The notes beneath the pieces were generated by a model that saw nothing but the letters and a program-made list of their open reading frames with translations, was not told the origin of the DNA and ran no database searches. Shown in pieces: positions 3,288 through 10,026 of a DNA stretch of 34,969 nucleotides. Each line of letters begins with the position of its first letter. Within the stretch, counting starts at the first letter, position 1. Source of the DNA: an uncultured Candidatus Saccharibacteria bacterium (GTDB taxonomy: Bacteria > Patescibacteriota > Minisyncoccia > UBA6257 > 2-01-FULL-56-20). The position numbers were made by a program, and so were the translations under genes. The stretch spans positions 1-34,969 of the forward strand of contig CAZXCH010000001.1 of NCBI GenBank assembly GCA_964639165.1, given 5' to 3'.

Positions 3288-3908
3288 ATGCAGTACCAAG
3301 TTCCACAATTCATTGATACCGAGGATAATCTGGTTGGGCCGTTCTCCCTTCGGCAGTTTGCTTATGTCGGCGCCGCGGCGATCGTGAGCGCCATATGCTA
3401 TTTCTTCCTACAAACATGGCTGTTCGTCATTGTGGCAATCATCGCGATTGGCGGCTCGCTCGCCCTCGCCTTTCTTAAGATCAACGGCCGGCCGCTCATC
3501 AAGGTCATCACTTCCGCTGCTAATTTTTATTGGAAGCCTCAACTTTACGTCTGGAAAGCCGATCATCCGATCATGACGCAGCAAAAGCAGAGGCCTGCTG
3601 CCGCGATGCGCGCGTTGCCTCCGATCGAAGAGAAAAAAGTCGGCCGGGTGGCGACGCATGGCGGCAACAATACCGCATCCGCGCCTCCGGATGTCACCGA
3701 ACGCGAGCTTCCGCCGGTTCAAACCATCGCAAGGGGAGATTCGTTGCACAAGAGCTGGGAAAATCTCCAGACCGGTACGCCGGACGGCGGTGAAACAAAG
3801 AAGACTTCCGACCGGCAATTTCTGGAAAAGAAGATGGCCGAGCGGTATGAGATATTCCAGCGGCTTGGCGGCGATCGCGCGGCGGCGCGGCGCGTGGATT
3901 ATCGCTAA
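3288..3908 (+). CDS. PrgI-family (VirB3-like) small membrane protein
   Basis: The N-terminus MQYQVPQFIDTEDNLVGPFSLRQFAYVGAAAIV followed by two TM helices is the characteristic PrgI-family signature. It lies upstream of VirB4, as in Gram-positive T4SS loci. TACAAT sits at 3274-3279, 8 nt before the ATG. Confidence 0.65.
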   Translation: MQYQVPQFIDTEDNLVGPFSLRQFAYVGAAAIVSAICYFFLQTWLFVIVAIIAIGGSLALAFLKINGRPLIKVITSAANFYWKPQLYVWKADHPIMTQQKQRPAAAMRALPPIEEKKVGRVATHGGNNTASAPPDVTERELPPVQTIARGDSLHKSWENLQTGTPDGGETKKTSDRQFLEKKMAERYEIFQRLGGDRAAARRVDYR

Positions 3909-3929
3909 GAAATATGGGAAAATAAGAAT

Positions 3930-4625
3930 ATGGCTCCAATACAACAACAGGATGCAGGAAATTCCGTCGATCTCGTGGAGGTCAAGGAGATCAAAGAGAA
4001 GACTGTCGTCGTGAAAGACGGAAGCCTTCGTCAAGTTATCATGGTGGGGGGCGTCAATTTTTCCCTCAAATCCGATAACGAGCAGAACATCATCACGCAG
4101 GGATATCAGACCTTTTTAAATAGCATCGATTTCCCTCTGCAGATAGTCATCCATTCCCGGAAGGTGAACATCGAAAAATATTTGGAGAGCCTTATGGCAA
4201 GAAAAGAAGTTGAGCCGTCACCCATCCTTCAAAACCAAATAGAGGAGTATACGAAGTTTGTGAAAGGATTCGTCGAGCAGAACGCGATCATGGAAAAGAT
4301 ATTCCTGGTGGTCGTCTCGTTCTATCCGCTCTCCGGACTTCCTGGCGTCAGCAAGAGCGTTTCCGGATTTCTCCCGTTCCTCGGAAAGAAAAAAACGCCC
4401 GCCGGTGCGGGGCCCGCTTCCGCGCAACGCGCCGAAGAAGAGGAAAGAATGTTCAAAGAAAACCTCGCGCAGCTGAATCAGCGGGTCACCCAGGTGACGA
4501 CGGGATTGCTGAATATCGGGCTGGAGGCAACCGTCCTTGACGACGAACAGCTCGTTGAGCTCTTCTATAATTTCTATAATCCTCAAACGATCGAGCGCGC
4601 CACGGCGCCCGATTCCCGAAAATAA
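3930..4625 (+). CDS. hypothetical soluble protein in the T4SS-like operon
   Basis: 231-aa ORF packed between the PrgI-like and VirB4-like genes. Any resemblance to N-terminal regions of VirB4/TraC-type proteins is weak and unverified. Confidence 0.55.
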   Translation: MAPIQQQDAGNSVDLVEVKEIKEKTVVVKDGSLRQVIMVGGVNFSLKSDNEQNIITQGYQTFLNSIDFPLQIVIHSRKVNIEKYLESLMARKEVEPSPILQNQIEEYTKFVKGFVEQNAIMEKIFLVVVSFYPLSGLPGVSKSVSGFLPFLGKKKTPAGAGPASAQRAEEEERMFKENLAQLNQRVTQVTTGLLNIGLEATVLDDEQLVELFYNFYNPQTIERATAPDSRK

Positions 4626-4635
4626 CAATACGACC

Positions 4636-6372
4636 ATGCCAGAAGGCCAAGAAAAAAACACTTTTGATAACGTAAAAAAGATCATCGCGCCGGCGGGCGC
4701 GCAAGTGTTTCCCAACTACCTGAAGATCGGCGACAAATTGGCGAAGACCTTCTTTGTGTTCTCCTACCCCCGCTATCTTTCTACCGGGTGGTTCGAGCCG
4801 CTCATCAACCTGCCAAACCTCTTCGACGTCTCTATCTTCATCAACCCGGTCGATACCGGGAGCGCGCTCAAGAAACTCCGCAAGAAAGCGGGGCAACTGG
4901 AATCACAAATGAACGAAGAGCAGGAAAAAGGGCTCGTAAGAAACCCCGTGCTCGAGACTGCCATCAATGACGTTGAAGGTTTGCGCGATTCGCTCCAACA
5001 ATCCGAGGAAAAACTTTTTGATACCGGCGTCTATATTACGATCTACGCGGACACCCTTGAGGAACTTGCGCGGCTTGAGAGCAAGTTGGTCACCATGATG
5101 GAAGCGAAGTTGATCTATCTCAAACCCGCTCTTTTTGAACAGCTTGAGGGACTTTCCTCCGTTCTGCCCATCAACGACGACAAACTGCAGATATACTCCC
5201 CGATGAACACGAGCCCTATCTCGTCATTCTTCCCGTTCGTCTCGGAGGATCTTTCGTCAAACCAGGGGATTATGTACGGCATCAACCTTCACAACAACAA
5301 TCTGGTCATCTTCGACCGCTTCTCTCTTGAGAACGCGAACGAGGTGGTGTTTGCAAAGTCCGGTTCCGGCAAATCGTACACAACCAAGCTTGAGATCCTT
5401 CGCGCGCTCATGGCGGGCATCGATATGGTGATCGTCATCGATCCGGAGAATGAATACGGCCGCCTTGCGGAAACGTTCGCGGGAAGTATGTTCAACATCT
5501 CGCTTTCCTCGCATGAACACATCAATCCGTTCGATATCCCGCCGATACCTGAGGGCGAGACCCCTTCCGACGTTTTGCGTTCGCACATCGTGAACCTTGC
5601 GAGTCTGCTCAAGTTGATGCTTGGCAAACTTACCCCGGAGGAGGACTCCATTTTGGACCGCGCGATCACTGAAACGTATGCCTCGCGCGAGATCGTCGCC
5701 GATACGGACTTCACCGGCAAAGAGCCTCCTTTATTGGGAGACCTTGAAACGATCCTGCGGAATCTTGAAGGGGGAAATGAGCTCGCCGAGAAGCTCTATA
5801 AATACACAAAGGGTAGCTTTGCCGGTTTTTTGAACCAGCCCACCAACATTGACGTCAACAACCGCCTGATCATCTTCTCCATCCGCGACCTCGAAGAAGA
5901 GCTCCGCCCGCTCGGCATGTTCGTCGTGCTCAACTTCATCTGGAATCTCATCCGCGCGAAGCTCGCCAAACGCCTGCTCTTCATCGACGAGGCGTGGATC
6001 ATGATGAAGAACGACGACAGCGCGACGTTCCTGTTCGGCCTCGTCAAGCGCGCGCGCAAATATTATTTGGGCGTCACCACGATCACGCAAGACGTGGAAG
6101 ACTTTTTGCGGTCGCCGTACGGGCGCCCGATCGTCACCAACTCTTCTCTTCAGCTGCTCTTGAAGCAGGCGCCCGCCACGATTGATATTCTCGCGAAAGC
6201 ATTTGACCTCACCGACGCGGAGAAGAATTTCCTTCTTGGCGCCGCCGTCGGCACCGGCATCTTCTTTGCCGGCAAGCGACACGTCGCCATCCAGATCGTC
6301 CCGTCATATTACGAAGACCAGATCATCACCACGAATCCCGAACAGCTTCTCGAGGAGAAAAAACAGGCCTAA
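4636..6372 (+). CDS. virB4: VirB4/TraC/PrgJ-like type IV secretion ATPase
   Basis: Walker A is FAKSGSGKSYTTK and Walker B is RLLFIDEAW. The N-terminal pattern YPRYLSTGWFEPLINL...DVSIFINP is typical of VirB4 homologues. The start was moved from the ORF-track position 4537 to ATG 4636, 11 nt after the upstream stop. Confidence 0.8.
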   Translation: MPEGQEKNTFDNVKKIIAPAGAQVFPNYLKIGDKLAKTFFVFSYPRYLSTGWFEPLINLPNLFDVSIFINPVDTGSALKKLRKKAGQLESQMNEEQEKGLVRNPVLETAINDVEGLRDSLQQSEEKLFDTGVYITIYADTLEELARLESKLVTMMEAKLIYLKPALFEQLEGLSSVLPINDDKLQIYSPMNTSPISSFFPFVSEDLSSNQGIMYGINLHNNNLVIFDRFSLENANEVVFAKSGSGKSYTTKLEILRALMAGIDMVIVIDPENEYGRLAETFAGSMFNISLSSHEHINPFDIPPIPEGETPSDVLRSHIVNLASLLKLMLGKLTPEEDSILDRAITETYASREIVADTDFTGKEPPLLGDLETILRNLEGGNELAEKLYKYTKGSFAGFLNQPTNIDVNNRLIIFSIRDLEEELRPLGMFVVLNFIWNLIRAKLAKRLLFIDEAWIMMKNDDSATFLFGLVKRARKYYLGVTTITQDVEDFLRSPYGRPIVTNSSLQLLLKQAPATIDILAKAFDLTDAEKNFLLGAAVGTGIFFAGKRHVAIQIVPSYYEDQIITTNPEQLLEEKKQA

Positions 6373-6381
6373 CCCATTCCT

Positions 6382-7245
6382 ATGGCCGAAAGACCGGAAC
6401 CAAAGATATCCACATCGGAGGCAGTCCTCATCGGGATGTTTTTGTTGATCCTCGACGCGATCGATCTAATCCCCATCGCAGGCGACCTTACGGATGTCGC
6501 AGGCGCCCCATTGATCCTCTACTACTATACAAAGCATATCAACGGCGTTGCTTATATTGTTTCCGAGATTTTGGATCTCATCCCTATTGTTCAAGAGATT
6601 CCCTCGCGGAGCATCGTTTGGTGGGGGACGGTCGCATTTGATAGATTTGCGCCCGCAAAAGTTGAAGAGGCGGTGGAAAAACTTGGCGAAGAGGCCGAAG
6701 GCAAAGAGGGAGGCGGGGAATTGGAAGGCGAAGGAGGACTTGGCGCGGAAACATCAGAAGGCGGCCAACGCGGCGCTTCTTCGGCAGAAAGGGTTGAAGA
6801 GGAAGGAGTGCGAGGCAGCGGGACAAAGGAAGGGGTTCAGGATGAAGAGTCAAGACAAAACACCGAATCCGGAACCACCGAGAAAGAGGCGGCGGATATG
6901 AGAGAAGGCGGAGAACCGGGTGGCGAAAGCGAAAGTCCGGAAGAAAATGGGGGCCAAAAGAACGGTAACGGTGAAGATATTTCAGCCACGGAGAGCGAAG
7001 AGGAGCCAATGGCCGTGACCGAAGGCCAGCTCTTCACTCAGTCGGGCGATGAAAGTTCCTCCTCCACCGAAGAGAAAGGAGAAGATGAGGAGGCTGTAGA
7101 AGAAAAGGCTCGTGCCGCGCCACCGAGACACTCTGGGAATACTGTTAGCATTGATAGTTCCAAGAAATGGCAACGAAACCAGCGACGTAAAAAAACCAAA
7201 CCAAGCACGGCCGACGTTATCCCCCCGGAAGAGATGGCCGCATAG
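6382..7245 (+). CDS. membrane-anchored protein with a ~190-aa Glu/Gly-rich polyacidic tail and a basic C-terminus
   Basis: Hydrophobic N-terminal ~100 aa, then EEAEGKEGGGELEGEGGLGAE... low complexity, ending in KKWQRNQRRKKTK. It starts 10 nt after the VirB4 stop. Confidence 0.55.
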   Translation: MAERPEPKISTSEAVLIGMFLLILDAIDLIPIAGDLTDVAGAPLILYYYTKHINGVAYIVSEILDLIPIVQEIPSRSIVWWGTVAFDRFAPAKVEEAVEKLGEEAEGKEGGGELEGEGGLGAETSEGGQRGASSAERVEEEGVRGSGTKEGVQDEESRQNTESGTTEKEAADMREGGEPGGESESPEENGGQKNGNGEDISATESEEEPMAVTEGQLFTQSGDESSSSTEEKGEDEEAVEEKARAAPPRHSGNTVSIDSSKKWQRNQRRKKTKPSTADVIPPEEMAA

Positions 7246-7284: not shown

Positions 7285-8001
7285 ATGTCCGCTCGTTCTA
7301 CTATCCGAAAAGTGGTCTTCCTGGGGCTTTTGGTTTTTTCTGCCGTTTTCTTCTTTTCGTTCTGCGGGGCCCATGCCCAAACCGCATCGTCGCCCAAGTT
7401 TTTGCTGACCTGGAAGGCATCCAATAGTTATATCCCTTCGTTCTATGAGGGAAAAGCACTCCCGTCCTCGGGAGGCACGAAGATCACTGCATCGCTTGAG
7501 CTGATCTCAAACGGAAAGCTCGTCAATCTTAGTAACCAAAATATTTATTGGTATGAGGATGAAATTTTGGTAGGAGGTGGGGCCGGGGTGCAGCAAGTGA
7601 CATTTACTCCATTTGGAACGCCGCCCAGCACCCTTGTGTTAAGCGTGCAGCTCCCCCAATATAGTGGCGGCTATCTCACCCACACCGTCAACATTCCTTT
7701 CGTAACCCCTTTGGCGGTGATTGACGCCCCGTATCCAAACCAAGAATTTTCCACAAATCTTCTTACGCTACAAGGGCTACCGTTCTTTTTCAATGCAACA
7801 TCAACGAACAACATTTCGTTCACGTGGTCGGTCAACGGCCAAACCGGAGCGAACGCGGAAAATCCTCAAGTGGCCGAGATCAGTCTCCCACCAGGAACCC
7901 CGGGCGGAACGAATTTTGGCGTCTCGCTTTCTATCAGCAATTTCCAAGGGGCCACGGTCGCAAACACGAATCAGGAATTCACATTCCAAAATCAATTATG
8001 A
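7285..8001 (+). CDS. secreted beta-rich protein of unknown function
   Basis: Signal peptide MSARSTIRKVVFLGLLVFSAVFFFSFCGAHAQ. An AGGAAAG motif lies upstream. The stop overlaps the next start (ATGA at 7998-8001). Confidence 0.6.
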   Translation: MSARSTIRKVVFLGLLVFSAVFFFSFCGAHAQTASSPKFLLTWKASNSYIPSFYEGKALPSSGGTKITASLELISNGKLVNLSNQNIYWYEDEILVGGGAGVQQVTFTPFGTPPSTLVLSVQLPQYSGGYLTHTVNIPFVTPLAVIDAPYPNQEFSTNLLTLQGLPFFFNATSTNNISFTWSVNGQTGANAENPQVAEISLPPGTPGGTNFGVSLSISNFQGATVANTNQEFTFQNQL

Positions 8002-8666
8002 TGAACTTTCTTTTTTTGGTGGCACATGCGGTTACCATCAGCACCGCCATCCCCGGCACCAATCCGAATAGCACGAGCTCCTCGCCGGGGGCGTTCGTGG
8101 CGAACTTCTATCAATTCGCATTGATGATCGGAGGAATCCTTGCCTTGGGTGCCATCGTGTACGGAGGGGTCAGATATGTGGCTTCCGCAGGCAATCCTTC
8201 CGCCCAAAGCGATGGGAAGGAATGGATCTGGGGGGCATTGATCGGACTCCTGCTCCTTGCCGGAGCCTATCTGGTGCTGAACGTCGTGAATCCCCAGCTC
8301 GTGAACCTCAATCTGCCTACCCTGAATCAGATATCGGCGGTGAATAATACGACGGTGGCGCCGGGAAATTATACAACCGCCTCAACGTGCCAGGCTACTT
8401 CCAATGGAGGTTCGACCGGAACATGTCAACCCGACGCAAGCGGTAAAAATCAAAACTGCTGTAATCTTAACGGACTGGGGATCTGCACTACCGACTCGTG
8501 CTCGGATCTGTCAAATTTACAATGTCGGGCCACTTCTAATGGAGGCACAACCGGATCTTGCCCAAATCTTAATGGGGCGGCCCAAAATTGTTGTTATTCT
8601 AGCATCGATGATAGTGCGATCTGCGTAACCGAGACGTGCGCCGATTTTGCCGCCGAGGCCCAATAA
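7998..8666 (+). CDS. VirB2/TrbC-like T4SS pilin with two C-terminal six-cysteine modules
   Basis: Hydrophobic leader, then two TM helices (FYQFALMIGGILALGAIVYGGVRYV and WIWGALIGLLLLAGAYLVLNVV) joined by a short polar loop, which is the pilin hairpin topology. The C-terminus carries a tandem C-x11-C-x9/10-CC-x7/9-C-x4-C repeat. The start was trimmed to ATG 7998, coupled to the upstream stop. Confidence 0.6.
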   Translation: MMNFLFLVAHAVTISTAIPGTNPNSTSSSPGAFVANFYQFALMIGGILALGAIVYGGVRYVASAGNPSAQSDGKEWIWGALIGLLLLAGAYLVLNVVNPQLVNLNLPTLNQISAVNNTTVAPGNYTTASTCQATSNGGSTGTCQPDASGKNQNCCNLNGLGICTTDSCSDLSNLQCRATSNGGTTGSCPNLNGAAQNCCYSSIDDSAICVTETCADFAAEAQ

Positions 8667-8682
8667 TATATATAATAGATTC

Positions 8683-10026
8683 ATGAAACGCTATCTCTAC
8701 ATCATCATCGGCATCGTGGTTGCGGCAGTGATCGTAATTTTGGTTCTTTTCTTGATCAAAAATCGTGCGGCTGGACCTTCTCTCGTTACGTCGGGCACGG
8801 GGTCTCTGCCCGCCGCCAACACGCAGGGCATTGGCGGTTCCTCGTCGACGGGGAGCGAAAGTAGTGGTAGCGGGACACTTGGCCTTGCGGTCATAACGGG
8901 GAGCAGTACGGCCGCCGCGAGCGGACAGATGACCCCGCAGAAGTTTGGTGTCTTATCGAACAATCCGGTCCTTACTTATTTCGTCGATCCACACAACAAC
9001 ATAACCGCCATTGAGCCGACGGGCGAGATATTCACTATCTCAAACGGACAATCCACTATAGTGAACTCTTCAACGATCAACGACATCATTTCTGCAAGTT
9101 TCTCGTATGACGGTAAAAAAATACTCGTAAACTATGGCGCCTCTTCTAACCCGCAATCGGGGGTGTTCGATCTTGCGGCAAACACGTGGACATCGCTTCC
9201 GCAAGGCATGACGTCTCCTCAATGGTCGCCCGTCAGCAACTACCAGATCGCATATCTCGTGACTACCAACAACGGAAAGCTCGCGCTCGCGACTATAGAC
9301 GCCTCAAATCTTAAAGCAGCCCCTTCGGTCCTTCTTTCACTCAATGCGAACGACATCGCCCTCCAGTGGCCGACAAAAAGCGAATTTATCCTCTCGGACA
9401 GGCCGACGTCAAAGAGCCTTGGTTCGGTGTGGGCATTCAATTCTCTAACGGGGACGTTCTCCCCGGTTCTCTACGAGGTTTCTGGCGCAGAAAGCACCTG
9501 GAGTAATAATGTCGCGTTCCCCTATGGACTTCTATTCTCCACCGCAAACGGAGGGAATCGCTTGCAGTTGCAGGCGCTTTCAGGACCTCTTCCCATTGAG
9601 TCGCTTACTTTTGCCACGCTTCCGTCAAAATGCACATTTAATACCGAGCTGATGCCCATCGCCACATCCACGACTGCCACTTCTTCAACAAGCACAACAA
9701 CGTCAACGGCCACTTCATCCACAAAGAAGGCAACGACACCCGCGAAGGCTGCTCCAACCTCTACCCCGTACCTTGCACTTTATTGCGGCATCCCGCGAAG
9801 TTCAAGCGGGTTCTCTTCTGCGCATCTTCCCGATGATTATAATATGATGGCTCTCTTTACTTCGGACAATCTCTATAAGGTGAACACTGAGACGGGAGTG
9901 ATACAACCGCTTTGGAACTCCCCAACGCAGAACATGGACGTCTCGGATCTGAAATTCTTCAATAACGCGCTGTTCTTCGTCAACCGCTACGATAATAAAT
10001 TGTACGGACTCACATTCGCTAATTAA
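8683..10026 (+). CDS. N-terminally anchored surface protein with a beta-propeller-like (TolB-like) body and a Thr/Ser-rich insert
   Basis: TM anchor YLYIIIGIVVAAVIVILVLFLI, then an S/G linker and repeated FSYDGKKIL / WSP-type strands. A low-complexity stretch reads ATSTTATSSTSTTTSTATSS. TATAAT at 8671-8676 lies exactly 6 nt before the ATG. Confidence 0.55.
   Translation: MKRYLYIIIGIVVAAVIVILVLFLIKNRAAGPSLVTSGTGSLPAANTQGIGGSSSTGSESSGSGTLGLAVITGSSTAAASGQMTPQKFGVLSNNPVLTYFVDPHNNITAIEPTGEIFTISNGQSTIVNSSTINDIISASFSYDGKKILVNYGASSNPQSGVFDLAANTWTSLPQGMTSPQWSPVSNYQIAYLVTTNNGKLALATIDASNLKAAPSVLLSLNANDIALQWPTKSEFILSDRPTSKSLGSVWAFNSLTGTFSPVLYEVSGAESTWSNNVAFPYGLLFSTANGGNRLQLQALSGPLPIESLTFATLPSKCTFNTELMPIATSTTATSSTSTTTSTATSSTKKATTPAKAAPTSTPYLALYCGIPRSSSGFSSAHLPDDYNMMALFTSDNLYKVNTETGVIQPLWNSPTQNMDVSDLKFFNNALFFVNRYDNKLYGLTFAN

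Follow-up and report, generated by a model that had tools for sequence, protein, structure and literature searches.

A T4SS pilin with a variable, twelve-cysteine C-terminal tail at a fixed operon slot in an uncultured Saccharibacteria genome

The pilin gene and its operon

The window, i.e., the whole stretch of 34,969 nucleotides of an uncultured Candidatus Saccharibacteria bacterium analysed here, carries a T4SS operon with a single PF18895 (T4SS_pilin) gene, P0001, whose product joins a two-helix core to a long C-terminal tail with 12 cysteines (Table 1). The PrgI and VirB4 genes lie 1.6-4.7 kb upstream of the pilin gene on the same strand, and the pilin ATG at 7998 and the TGA that closes the ORF before it (7285-8001) overlap in an ATGA arrangement, a sign that the p238 gene and the pilin are co-translated. 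The gene order p238, pilin, p445, R3H, yidC, rnpA, dnaA is common to four or five metagenomic loci, and the T4SS block adjoins R3H/jag, yidC, rnpA, dnaA, and dnaN in relatives, which agrees with the origin-proximal T4SS described for Patescibacteria (PMC12102498). A frameshifted VirB4 can be dismissed, given that the same two-gene split into TraC-like and VirB4 parts is found in all relatives examined (repeated in L004-L011). Among the operon genes, we saw no relaxase. The genome as a whole comprises 738,780 bp in 89 contigs at 53% GC and is 93% complete.

Table 1. Coordinates of the pilin gene, its parts, and its operon neighbours in the window.
Feature	Position	Strand	Description	Basis
T4SS core	3288..6372	+	PF12666, PF11130, PF19044	Pfam
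PrgI/VirB3-like	3288-3908	+		Pfam
TraC-like N-part	3930-4625	+		Pfam
VirB4 P-loop part	4537-6372	+	ORF	Pfam
Upstream partner (p238)	7285..8001	+	238 aa; predicted secreted or membrane protein	Found in every positional orthologue
Pilin gene P0001	7998..8666	+	222 aa plus stop	ORF and translation
Leader	7998..8030	+	11 aa; ends A-H-A, then conserved mature N-terminus VTIST	Alignment
Predicted two-helix membrane hairpin	8097..8288	+	aa ~34-58 and 76-97	AF2 helices, hydropathy, charge count
Linker	8289..8387	+	aa 98-130; opens with conserved NPQLVNLNLPTL motif	Sequence, charge/hydropathy, AF2
Variable cassette	8330..8670	+	DNA homology lost	blastn vs L008, L009, L014, L019
Cys module 1	8388..8501	+	aa 131-168; C-x11-C-x10-CC-x7-C-x4-C	Sequence; AF2 tail model
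Cys module 2	8523..8639	+	aa 176-214; C-x11-C-x9-CC-x9-C-x4-C; tandem duplicate of module 1	Sequence; AF2; shuffle test
Downstream partner (p445 in orthologues)	8683..10026	+	447 aa; N-terminal TM helix	Identity to orthologues

Residues 30-97 of P0001, which ends in a stop codon at 8664-8666, match PF18895 over profile positions 5-71 of 71 with a score of 34.5 bits, above the curated cut-off of 26.6. Together with the PrgI/VirB4 operon context, this upholds the pilin assignment that a preliminary description of the locus had made for the N-terminal part, and judged by sequence these residues are a T4SS pilin of the Patescibacteria type. The full-length AF2 model has helices at residues 30-63 and 67-97 (pLDDT 60-77), and G65, N66, P67, Q70, K74, and W76 are invariant hairpin-loop residues in the alignment of homologues. 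Classical TrbC/VirB2 and F-type TraA pilins are short and often trimmed or cyclised at their C-terminus. Like these, P0001 has a leader, two hydrophobic helices, and a short charged loop, but it differs from them in a 125-aa tail with 12 cysteines and in the absence of any match to their family PF04956 at E<=0.01. Two PF18895 paralogues score 17 bits against the PF04956 cut-off of 27.9 (E 0.005-0.007) and thus stay below threshold, as does a likeness of P0001 to a Mycoplasma ICE pilin-like family, and Foldseek found no match to P0001 among solved pilus subunits.

Two stretches outside the hairpin deserve mention. The leader is unusually short compared with the 24-27 aa of orthologue leaders (alignment; cluster members P0124 and P0125) and has no charged n-region, which, as regards the export route, counts against the display of the tail on a pilin proposed below. 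Beyond its opening motif, the linker is rich in Asn, Thr, and Ser with two N-x-S/T sequons, and its residues 103-125 are disordered in the full-length AF2 model (pLDDT <50).

Hydropathy analysis reveals two hydrophobic segments with Lys and Arg confined to the connecting loop (aa 59-75, conserved), where R59 and K74 are the only such residues near the membrane by hydropathy and charge count. Because of this confinement, the positive-inside rule would place the loop in the cytoplasm and orient both the N-terminus and the C-terminal tail outward, suggesting that the tail probably sits outside the cell. The charge distribution therefore predicts an outside location of the C-terminus, as the preliminary description had presupposed, and not a cytoplasmic one. 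In conjugative pilus structures, the pilin termini face outwards.

Two tandem cysteine modules

All 12 cysteines of P0001 fall into residues 131-214 and none into residues 1-130. Their codons start at 8388, 8424, 8457, 8460, 8484, 8499, 8523, 8559, 8589, 8592, 8622, and 8637, which gives spacings of 11, 10, 0, 7, and 4 residues in the first module, an inter-module spacer of 7 residues, and spacings of 11, 9, 0, 9, and 4 in the second. Two C-C-CC-C-C modules at the pilin C-terminus had been described from 8388-8639, and we indeed confirmed that the sequences agree with that transcription and that this interval runs exactly from the first to the last Cys codon; the module length of about 45 aa given at the time holds if the spacer is included, but the Cys-to-Cys length is 38-39 aa. 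The two modules are true duplicates with a similarity far above chance: their global alignment scores 113 against 6 +/- 10 for full shuffles of the modules and 38 +/- 11 for shuffles with the cysteines fixed, and a score of 113 was reached by 0/5000 shuffles in both tests.

A tail-only AF2 model built with 15 homologues as alignment reached a pLDDT of 78.8 and a pTM of 0.52 (pLDDT 76-84 for module 1) and predicts the same course for each module, i.e., a CC-bearing strand, a tight turn, a Cys5 strand, and a short helix from Cys6, with the predicted hairpin tip in loop 4 between the CC pair (Cys4) and Cys5. The tail had no match in Pfam at E<=1, and neither the tail nor the homologue profile A1 matched PDB sequences at E<=10. 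Foldseek against the PDB gave no match at E<=0.001 (best E 1.9, TM <=0.26) and none of significance against the viral structures of BFVD. Follistatin/Kazal-like modules took the top Foldseek rows, yet with E 1.9-2.5 and TM <=0.26 these are at chance level and the assignment was rejected.

Secreted knottin-type peptides typically show the C-C-CC-C-C pattern, and their consensus reads CX3-7CX3-6CX0-5CX1-4CX4-13C. Both modules of P0001 have six cysteines in this order with the adjacent CC pair and share with knottins a small size and a predicted beta-hairpin, but their loops are longer, with loops 1 (11 residues), 2 (9-10), and 4 (7-9) and thus three of five exceeding the consensus, and the predicted hairpin tip lies between Cys4 and Cys5 and not between Cys5 and Cys6. 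Alignments to the spider knottins 8uwf and 2roo cover 16-18 columns at E 8-9 in Foldseek, a method that is weak on very small domains. We therefore do not uphold membership in the knottin/ICK group, on the grounds of misfitting loop lengths, the displaced hairpin, and the lack of any significant match in Pfam, PDB, or Foldseek searches, and the earlier label "cystine-knot-like" denotes a shared order of cysteines and no more.

The same cysteine order, C-C-CC-C-C, occurs in hevein, where the CC pair and Cys5 lie on strands and a short helix sits at Cys6. The predicted order of secondary structure in the modules is similar to that of hevein-type CBM18 (PF00187), and some homologues have an aromatic residue after the CC pair, but the module loops are longer and module 1 has no aromatic residue in the loop from CC to Cys5. 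At the thresholds used (E<=1 in Pfam, E<=10 for PDB sequences), a CBM18 match of any kind should have appeared; Pfam, PDB, and Foldseek lend no support to a hevein/CBM18 carbohydrate-binding module, which we keep as a lead only.

Several observations point to disulfide formation in the tail. Among the encoded proteins is a DsbB with a CELC motif and a further Cys pair, which scores 43 bits at a cut-off of 22. Two Thioredoxin_4 proteins are DsbA-like; the first combines CPFC with a TM anchor and the second has CPAC. VKOR was not found in this 93%-complete genome. Of the disulfide-forming systems named in the preliminary description (DsbA/VKOR), the DsbA part is therefore borne out and accompanied by DsbB, which is present instead of VKOR; the latter was dropped as the oxidant. 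Among the homologue tails of at least 40 aa, 98 of 104 have an even, non-zero number of cysteines, three an odd number, and three none, and this bias toward even counts is what intramolecular disulfides predict. Cysteines make up 6.5% of the tail residues of homologues but 0.13% of their core residues. We infer from these data and from the charge distribution that the tail is extracellular and disulfide-bonded. Metal binding by the cysteines, in the form of zinc or iron-sulfur clusters and not disulfides, would fit their high density and a few Foldseek rows to zinc regulators at chance level, but the predicted extracytoplasmic location, the Dsb proteins in the genome, the overwhelmingly even cysteine counts across homologues, and the lack of His in both modules make this reading exceedingly improbable.

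Occurrence and exchange of the tail

How widespread such tails are was assessed in the best 120 homologues of P0001, selected with a length filter of 122-388 aa and ranked on the full-length query, with the tail measured after the conserved N-P-x-L motif. Tails of at least 40 aa are present in 104 of these 120, a share of tail-bearing pilins that is inflated because of the length filter and the full-length ranking. The earlier view that pilins normally lack such extensions thus holds for classical VirB2/TrbC but not for this clade of Patescibacteria, in which most close homologues have a Cys-rich tail. We counted 76 distinct cysteine frameworks among the best 120 homologues, and a module of the C-C-CC-C-C type occurs in 17 of them, be it as one copy, as two, or alongside modules of other types. 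The alignment of these 17 has invariant columns at Cys2, at the CC pair, and at Cys5. Four-Cys variants also occur in homologues, and these favour no particular pairing of the cysteines, the knotted one (I-IV, II-V, III-VI) included. P0002, which is 70% identical to P0001 overall, keeps all 12 of 12 cysteines even though loop 2 of its module 1 has 4 residues and not 10, so that the cysteines, whose conservation had been proposed as a check, are kept in relatives that share the module. As a side observation, P0003 resembles P0002 minus 43 aa, a deletion that joins the beginning of module 1 directly to the remainder of module 2 and that, resting on one 2.8-kb contig, could be the product of unequal recombination or of assembly collapse.

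Searches with the tail itself led back to pilins. Among 1.84 billion representative proteins, phmmer returned three matches (P0121, P0122, and P0123), of which P0121 and P0123 are N-truncated pilins with the same modules, while P0122 was rejected as a non-pilin carrier because it is a low-complexity repeat protein and its match an artefact. A word-indexed search with the tail region found P0002 only, and a profile of four tails matched only the pilin P0005. No module outside pilins and no stand-alone module was thus found in the phmmer, word-indexed, and profile searches. These results bear on the idea that the tail is cleaved and released as a small disulfide-rich peptide (e.g., a toxin, antimicrobial, or signal) with the core as its export carrier. 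TrbC-type pilins are known to undergo C-terminal trimming, and this precedent, the likeness of the cysteine order to secreted knottin-type peptides, and the long flexible linker ahead of the modules would all suit such a release. Against it stand the lack of stand-alone module proteins in our searches, the fact that no protease or cleavage motif was identified, and the lack of a significant match to knottin toxins (spider toxins with 16-18 columns at E 8-9), and we consider a released peptide very improbable.

At its fixed place in the operon, the tail is far more variable than its surroundings. Identity to positional orthologues amounts to 92-95% for the VirB4 P-loop protein, 78-84% for the pilin core, and 67-69% for p445 but 28-65% for the tail. 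The L004 tail (65% identity) has the same two modules, whereas those of L008 (34%) and L011 (28%) have one and two variant modules, respectively, and that of L009 (40%) has two modules of a different, CC-less framework, C-8-C-7-C-7-C-4-C-7-C. In blastn comparisons with loci that carry other tails (L008, L009, L014, and L019), DNA homology stops at about 8299-8354. It sets in again where the next gene starts, at 8671-8683, for L008, L014, and L019, and at 8916 for L009. Further tails were found in five other species of the same genus, where p238 and p445 on either side confirmed the slot orthologues: 43 aa with 6 Cys (G079), 118 aa with 12 Cys in another framework (G009), 229 aa with about 30 Cys (G099), 11 aa without Cys (G091), and a Gly/Ser/Asn-rich stretch of 33 aa without Cys (G055). 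A sample of 100 further genomes from this family contained no match to the window's own tail. The tail is therefore a separately evolving cassette that is replaced at the same slot in close relatives and, since congeners have Cys-free tails of 11 and 33 aa, a Cys-rich tail appears dispensable for basic function, which counts against the role proposed below.

Within the shared two-module type, the tail evolves faster than the core yet under constraint, as judged from a dN/dS of 0.09 for the core and of 0.27 for the tail (0.40 without Cys codons) in the pairwise comparison with L004, where dS is about 1 and near saturation. Elevated dN/dS or variability of the modules, which the preliminary description had put forward for examination, is thus seen in the faster pace of the tail but not as a ratio above 1, and values of 0.27-0.40, at a dS of about 1 that is close to saturation, do not support positive selection on the tail. 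Antigenic variation has been raised as a reading of pilin diversity in other T4SSs (PMC12102498), and variation of the tail could analogously be an escape from phages or host defences that target the exposed pilin, with modules that have no ligand. The sharp cassette boundaries and the occurrence, within one genus, of differing frameworks and tail-less forms at a single slot are in keeping with such an escape, but the conservation of the Cys scaffold and several non-Cys positions between module-sharing species and a tail dN/dS well below 1 indicate a maintained fold with a function, so that we regard escape as quite improbable. All three of these alternatives, i.e., escape, released peptide, and metal binding, are less likely than a disulfide-stabilised, exchangeable surface module of the pilin, which is the most likely identity of the tail.

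Proposed role of the tail

Patescibacteria, which account for much of bacterial diversity, live attached to their host cells. For P0001, we propose that the hairpin would be inserted into the membrane with the loop in the cytoplasm and both ends outside, where DsbA and DsbB would oxidise the 12 cysteines to six intramolecular disulfides, three per module. The oxidised modules may then form two small, protease-resistant knobs on a flexible stalk, and the T4SS could either extract and polymerise the pilin with its 125-aa tail or hold it at the machine, in both cases decorating the outside with knobs through which the host cell would be contacted. Swapping the cassette would in turn alter binding specificity. 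A binding role of the tail toward the host would fit its inferred exposure, and the entire proposal of a VirB2-like pilin of a chromosomal, origin-adjacent T4SS with oxidised tail knobs outside, host contact, and specificity altered by cassette exchange has in our estimate about an even chance of being correct.

A conserved assembly part with a variable, exposed C-terminus and a sharp homology boundary between them is equally seen in phage tail fibres, tailocins, and the D-regions of type IV pilins, systems in which receptor-binding ends are exchanged on a conserved shaft. The variable C-terminal D-region of type IV pilins is held by a disulfide. All of these belong to unrelated protein families and machines, however, so that the analogy is one of working mode only.

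Alternatively, the hairpin could be a membrane anchor and not a polymerising pilin, with the modules shown on the cell surface, possibly docked to the T4SS, and any filament formed by the short pilins of a second array. This alternative draws on other tails of the family, as P0072 carries an SLT_3 lysozyme-like domain on the same hairpin (36 bits), weak VanY/VanW signals occur in close homologues, and congeners also carry SLT_3-like tails of 157-182 aa, domains more to be expected on an anchored protein than on the subunit of a filament. This genome also has a separate array with four short PF18895 genes that lack a tail, and monoderm T4SSs are generally without pili (PMC12102498). On the other side, the T4SS operon has no pilin gene other than P0001, the slot of this gene is kept in all relatives examined, and its core, including the family-typical loop residues, is under strong purifying selection (dN/dS 0.09), which together lead us to consider a mere anchor unlikely, though it is the main alternative, well ahead of the escape, released-peptide, and metal readings.

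The closest described systems are the T4SS pilins of other Patescibacteria, of which the array of Ca. Southlakia epibionticum shares with P0001 the hairpin family, nearby PrgI and VirB4 genes of the monoderm type, a dnaA-adjacent location, and variable pilin paralogues. The pilin genes of that organism are essential (PMC10633639, PMC12857230), its T4SS likewise being required for life on the host in this one system tested (PMC10633639), and the pilin arrays of Patescibacteria are highly divergent, possibly for adaptation to host strains (PMC12102498). Different from Ca. Southlakia-type arrays, the operon in the window has a single tail-bearing pilin and the array lies elsewhere in the genome, and the papers searched on arrays of divergent pilins describe neither disulfide-rich C-terminal modules nor their exchange at a fixed slot. 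Cys- or disulfide-rich pilin tails are not mentioned in PMC12102498, PMC10633639, or PMC12857230, and a full-text literature search found no description of them. New at this locus are the tandem C-C-CC-C-C module, which our searches found on pilins only, the boundaries of the cassette, the failure of the knottin and hevein labels in our tests, and six different tails within one genus at one verified slot.

A survey of Patescibacteria T4SS loci identified no adhesin, and none of the PrgB type in particular (PMC12102498), and the tail module is a tangible candidate for the element that is missing there, be it for contact or for specificity. At about 40 aa, the modules would be easy to express and test for binding, and the diversity of frameworks (76 among the best 120 homologues) would open up a fresh supply of small scaffold folds. 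Even if the tails were inert decoration, they would still correct the textbook view of conjugative-type pilins as minimal peptides.

A more far-reaching reading, which we put forward only tentatively as possible but doubtful, is that Cys-rich tails are host-specificity determinants of epibionts, i.e., a library of small, disulfide-stabilised binding modules on a T4SS pilin whose cassettes are swapped by recombination between the conserved core and the start of the next gene as well as between paralogues. If this is true, the tail type would predict the host of a given CPR cell, much like the swapping of phage tail-fibre tips. As for paralogues, contig C38 of the same genome holds five further PF18895 genes, four of them short and tail-less, and a 392-aa paralogue on this contig has a core with about 90% protein and 81% DNA identity to P0001 up to the linker, followed by an unrelated tail.

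The pilin core and its C-terminal partners

Besides the operon of the window, the genome carries a second pilin locus on another contig, C38 (see table), with five PF18895 genes encoding proteins of 163, 392, 122, 136, and 156 aa, and the same pilin-array layout is seen in the related locus L010. The core of the 392-aa pilin is 81% identical at the DNA level to that of the window's pilin, P0001; past this core, it continues with a different six-cysteine module and then a large domain without assignment. Other close homologues of the P0001 core (P0072, P0013, and P0014; loci L015, L020, L021, and L022) carry at the C-terminus either a lysozyme-like SLT_3 domain (PF18896; P0072 scores 36 bits) or weak signals resembling VanY/VanW, and in other species of the genus the pilins with such C-termini belong to the second pilin locus. 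In one of these species (genome G099; loci L018, L023, and L024), four contigs stop within the conserved pilin core, where near-identical paralogue cores seem to break the assembly.

Positions of the pilin genes and neighbouring operon features
Feature	Location	Description
VirB4, first gene	window 3930-4625	TraC-like, 231 aa
VirB4, second gene	window 4537-6372	P-loop gene, ~580 aa
287-aa protein	window 6382-7245	N-terminal membrane region; long acidic Glu/Gly/Ser-rich low-complexity tail
P0001	window 7998-8666 (+)	PF18895 pilin
Leader of P0001	window 7998-8030	MMNFLFLVAHA, 11 aa only; no charged n-region
Second pilin locus	C38, L012:1712-5333	Downstream of gyrA and of a gene for a solute-binding protein

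Variants of the leader and of the cysteine modules

The leaders of P0001 orthologues measure 24 to 27 aa, much longer than that of the window's pilin. The short form is also present in P0124 and P0005 and is therefore no assembly error. The mature part of P0125, a cluster member of P0001 on a 2.7-kb ENA contig, almost matches that of P0001, module 2 containing a single substitution, yet the P0125 leader of 27 aa resembles that of the C38 paralogue; either the two pilin genes recombined through their near-identical cores or the assembly is chimeric. On another ENA contig (2.8 kb), P0003 is identical to the P0001 homologue P0002 except for the loss of 43 aa, which joins the beginning of module 1 directly with the remainder of module 2 and replaces the C-11-C spacing with C-7-C. 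Either the tandem modules recombined unequally or the assembly is collapsed here.

Neighbouring genes and sub-threshold likeness to Mycoplasma ICE proteins

P0001 shows sub-threshold similarity to the NCBIfam Mbov_0395 family (E 0.0023; 17.6 bits against a cut-off of 40), whose members are pilin-like proteins that Mycoplasma ICEs encode for conjugal transfer. The similarity hints that Patescibacteria pilins are linked to the hairpin proteins of monoderm conjugation systems. Upstream of the pilin, the split of VirB4 into two genes recurs in every related locus examined (L004 to L011) and is therefore a conserved feature rather than a frameshift. The 287-aa protein shares 32% to 57% identity with its orthologues; within the operon, only the pilin tail varies more.
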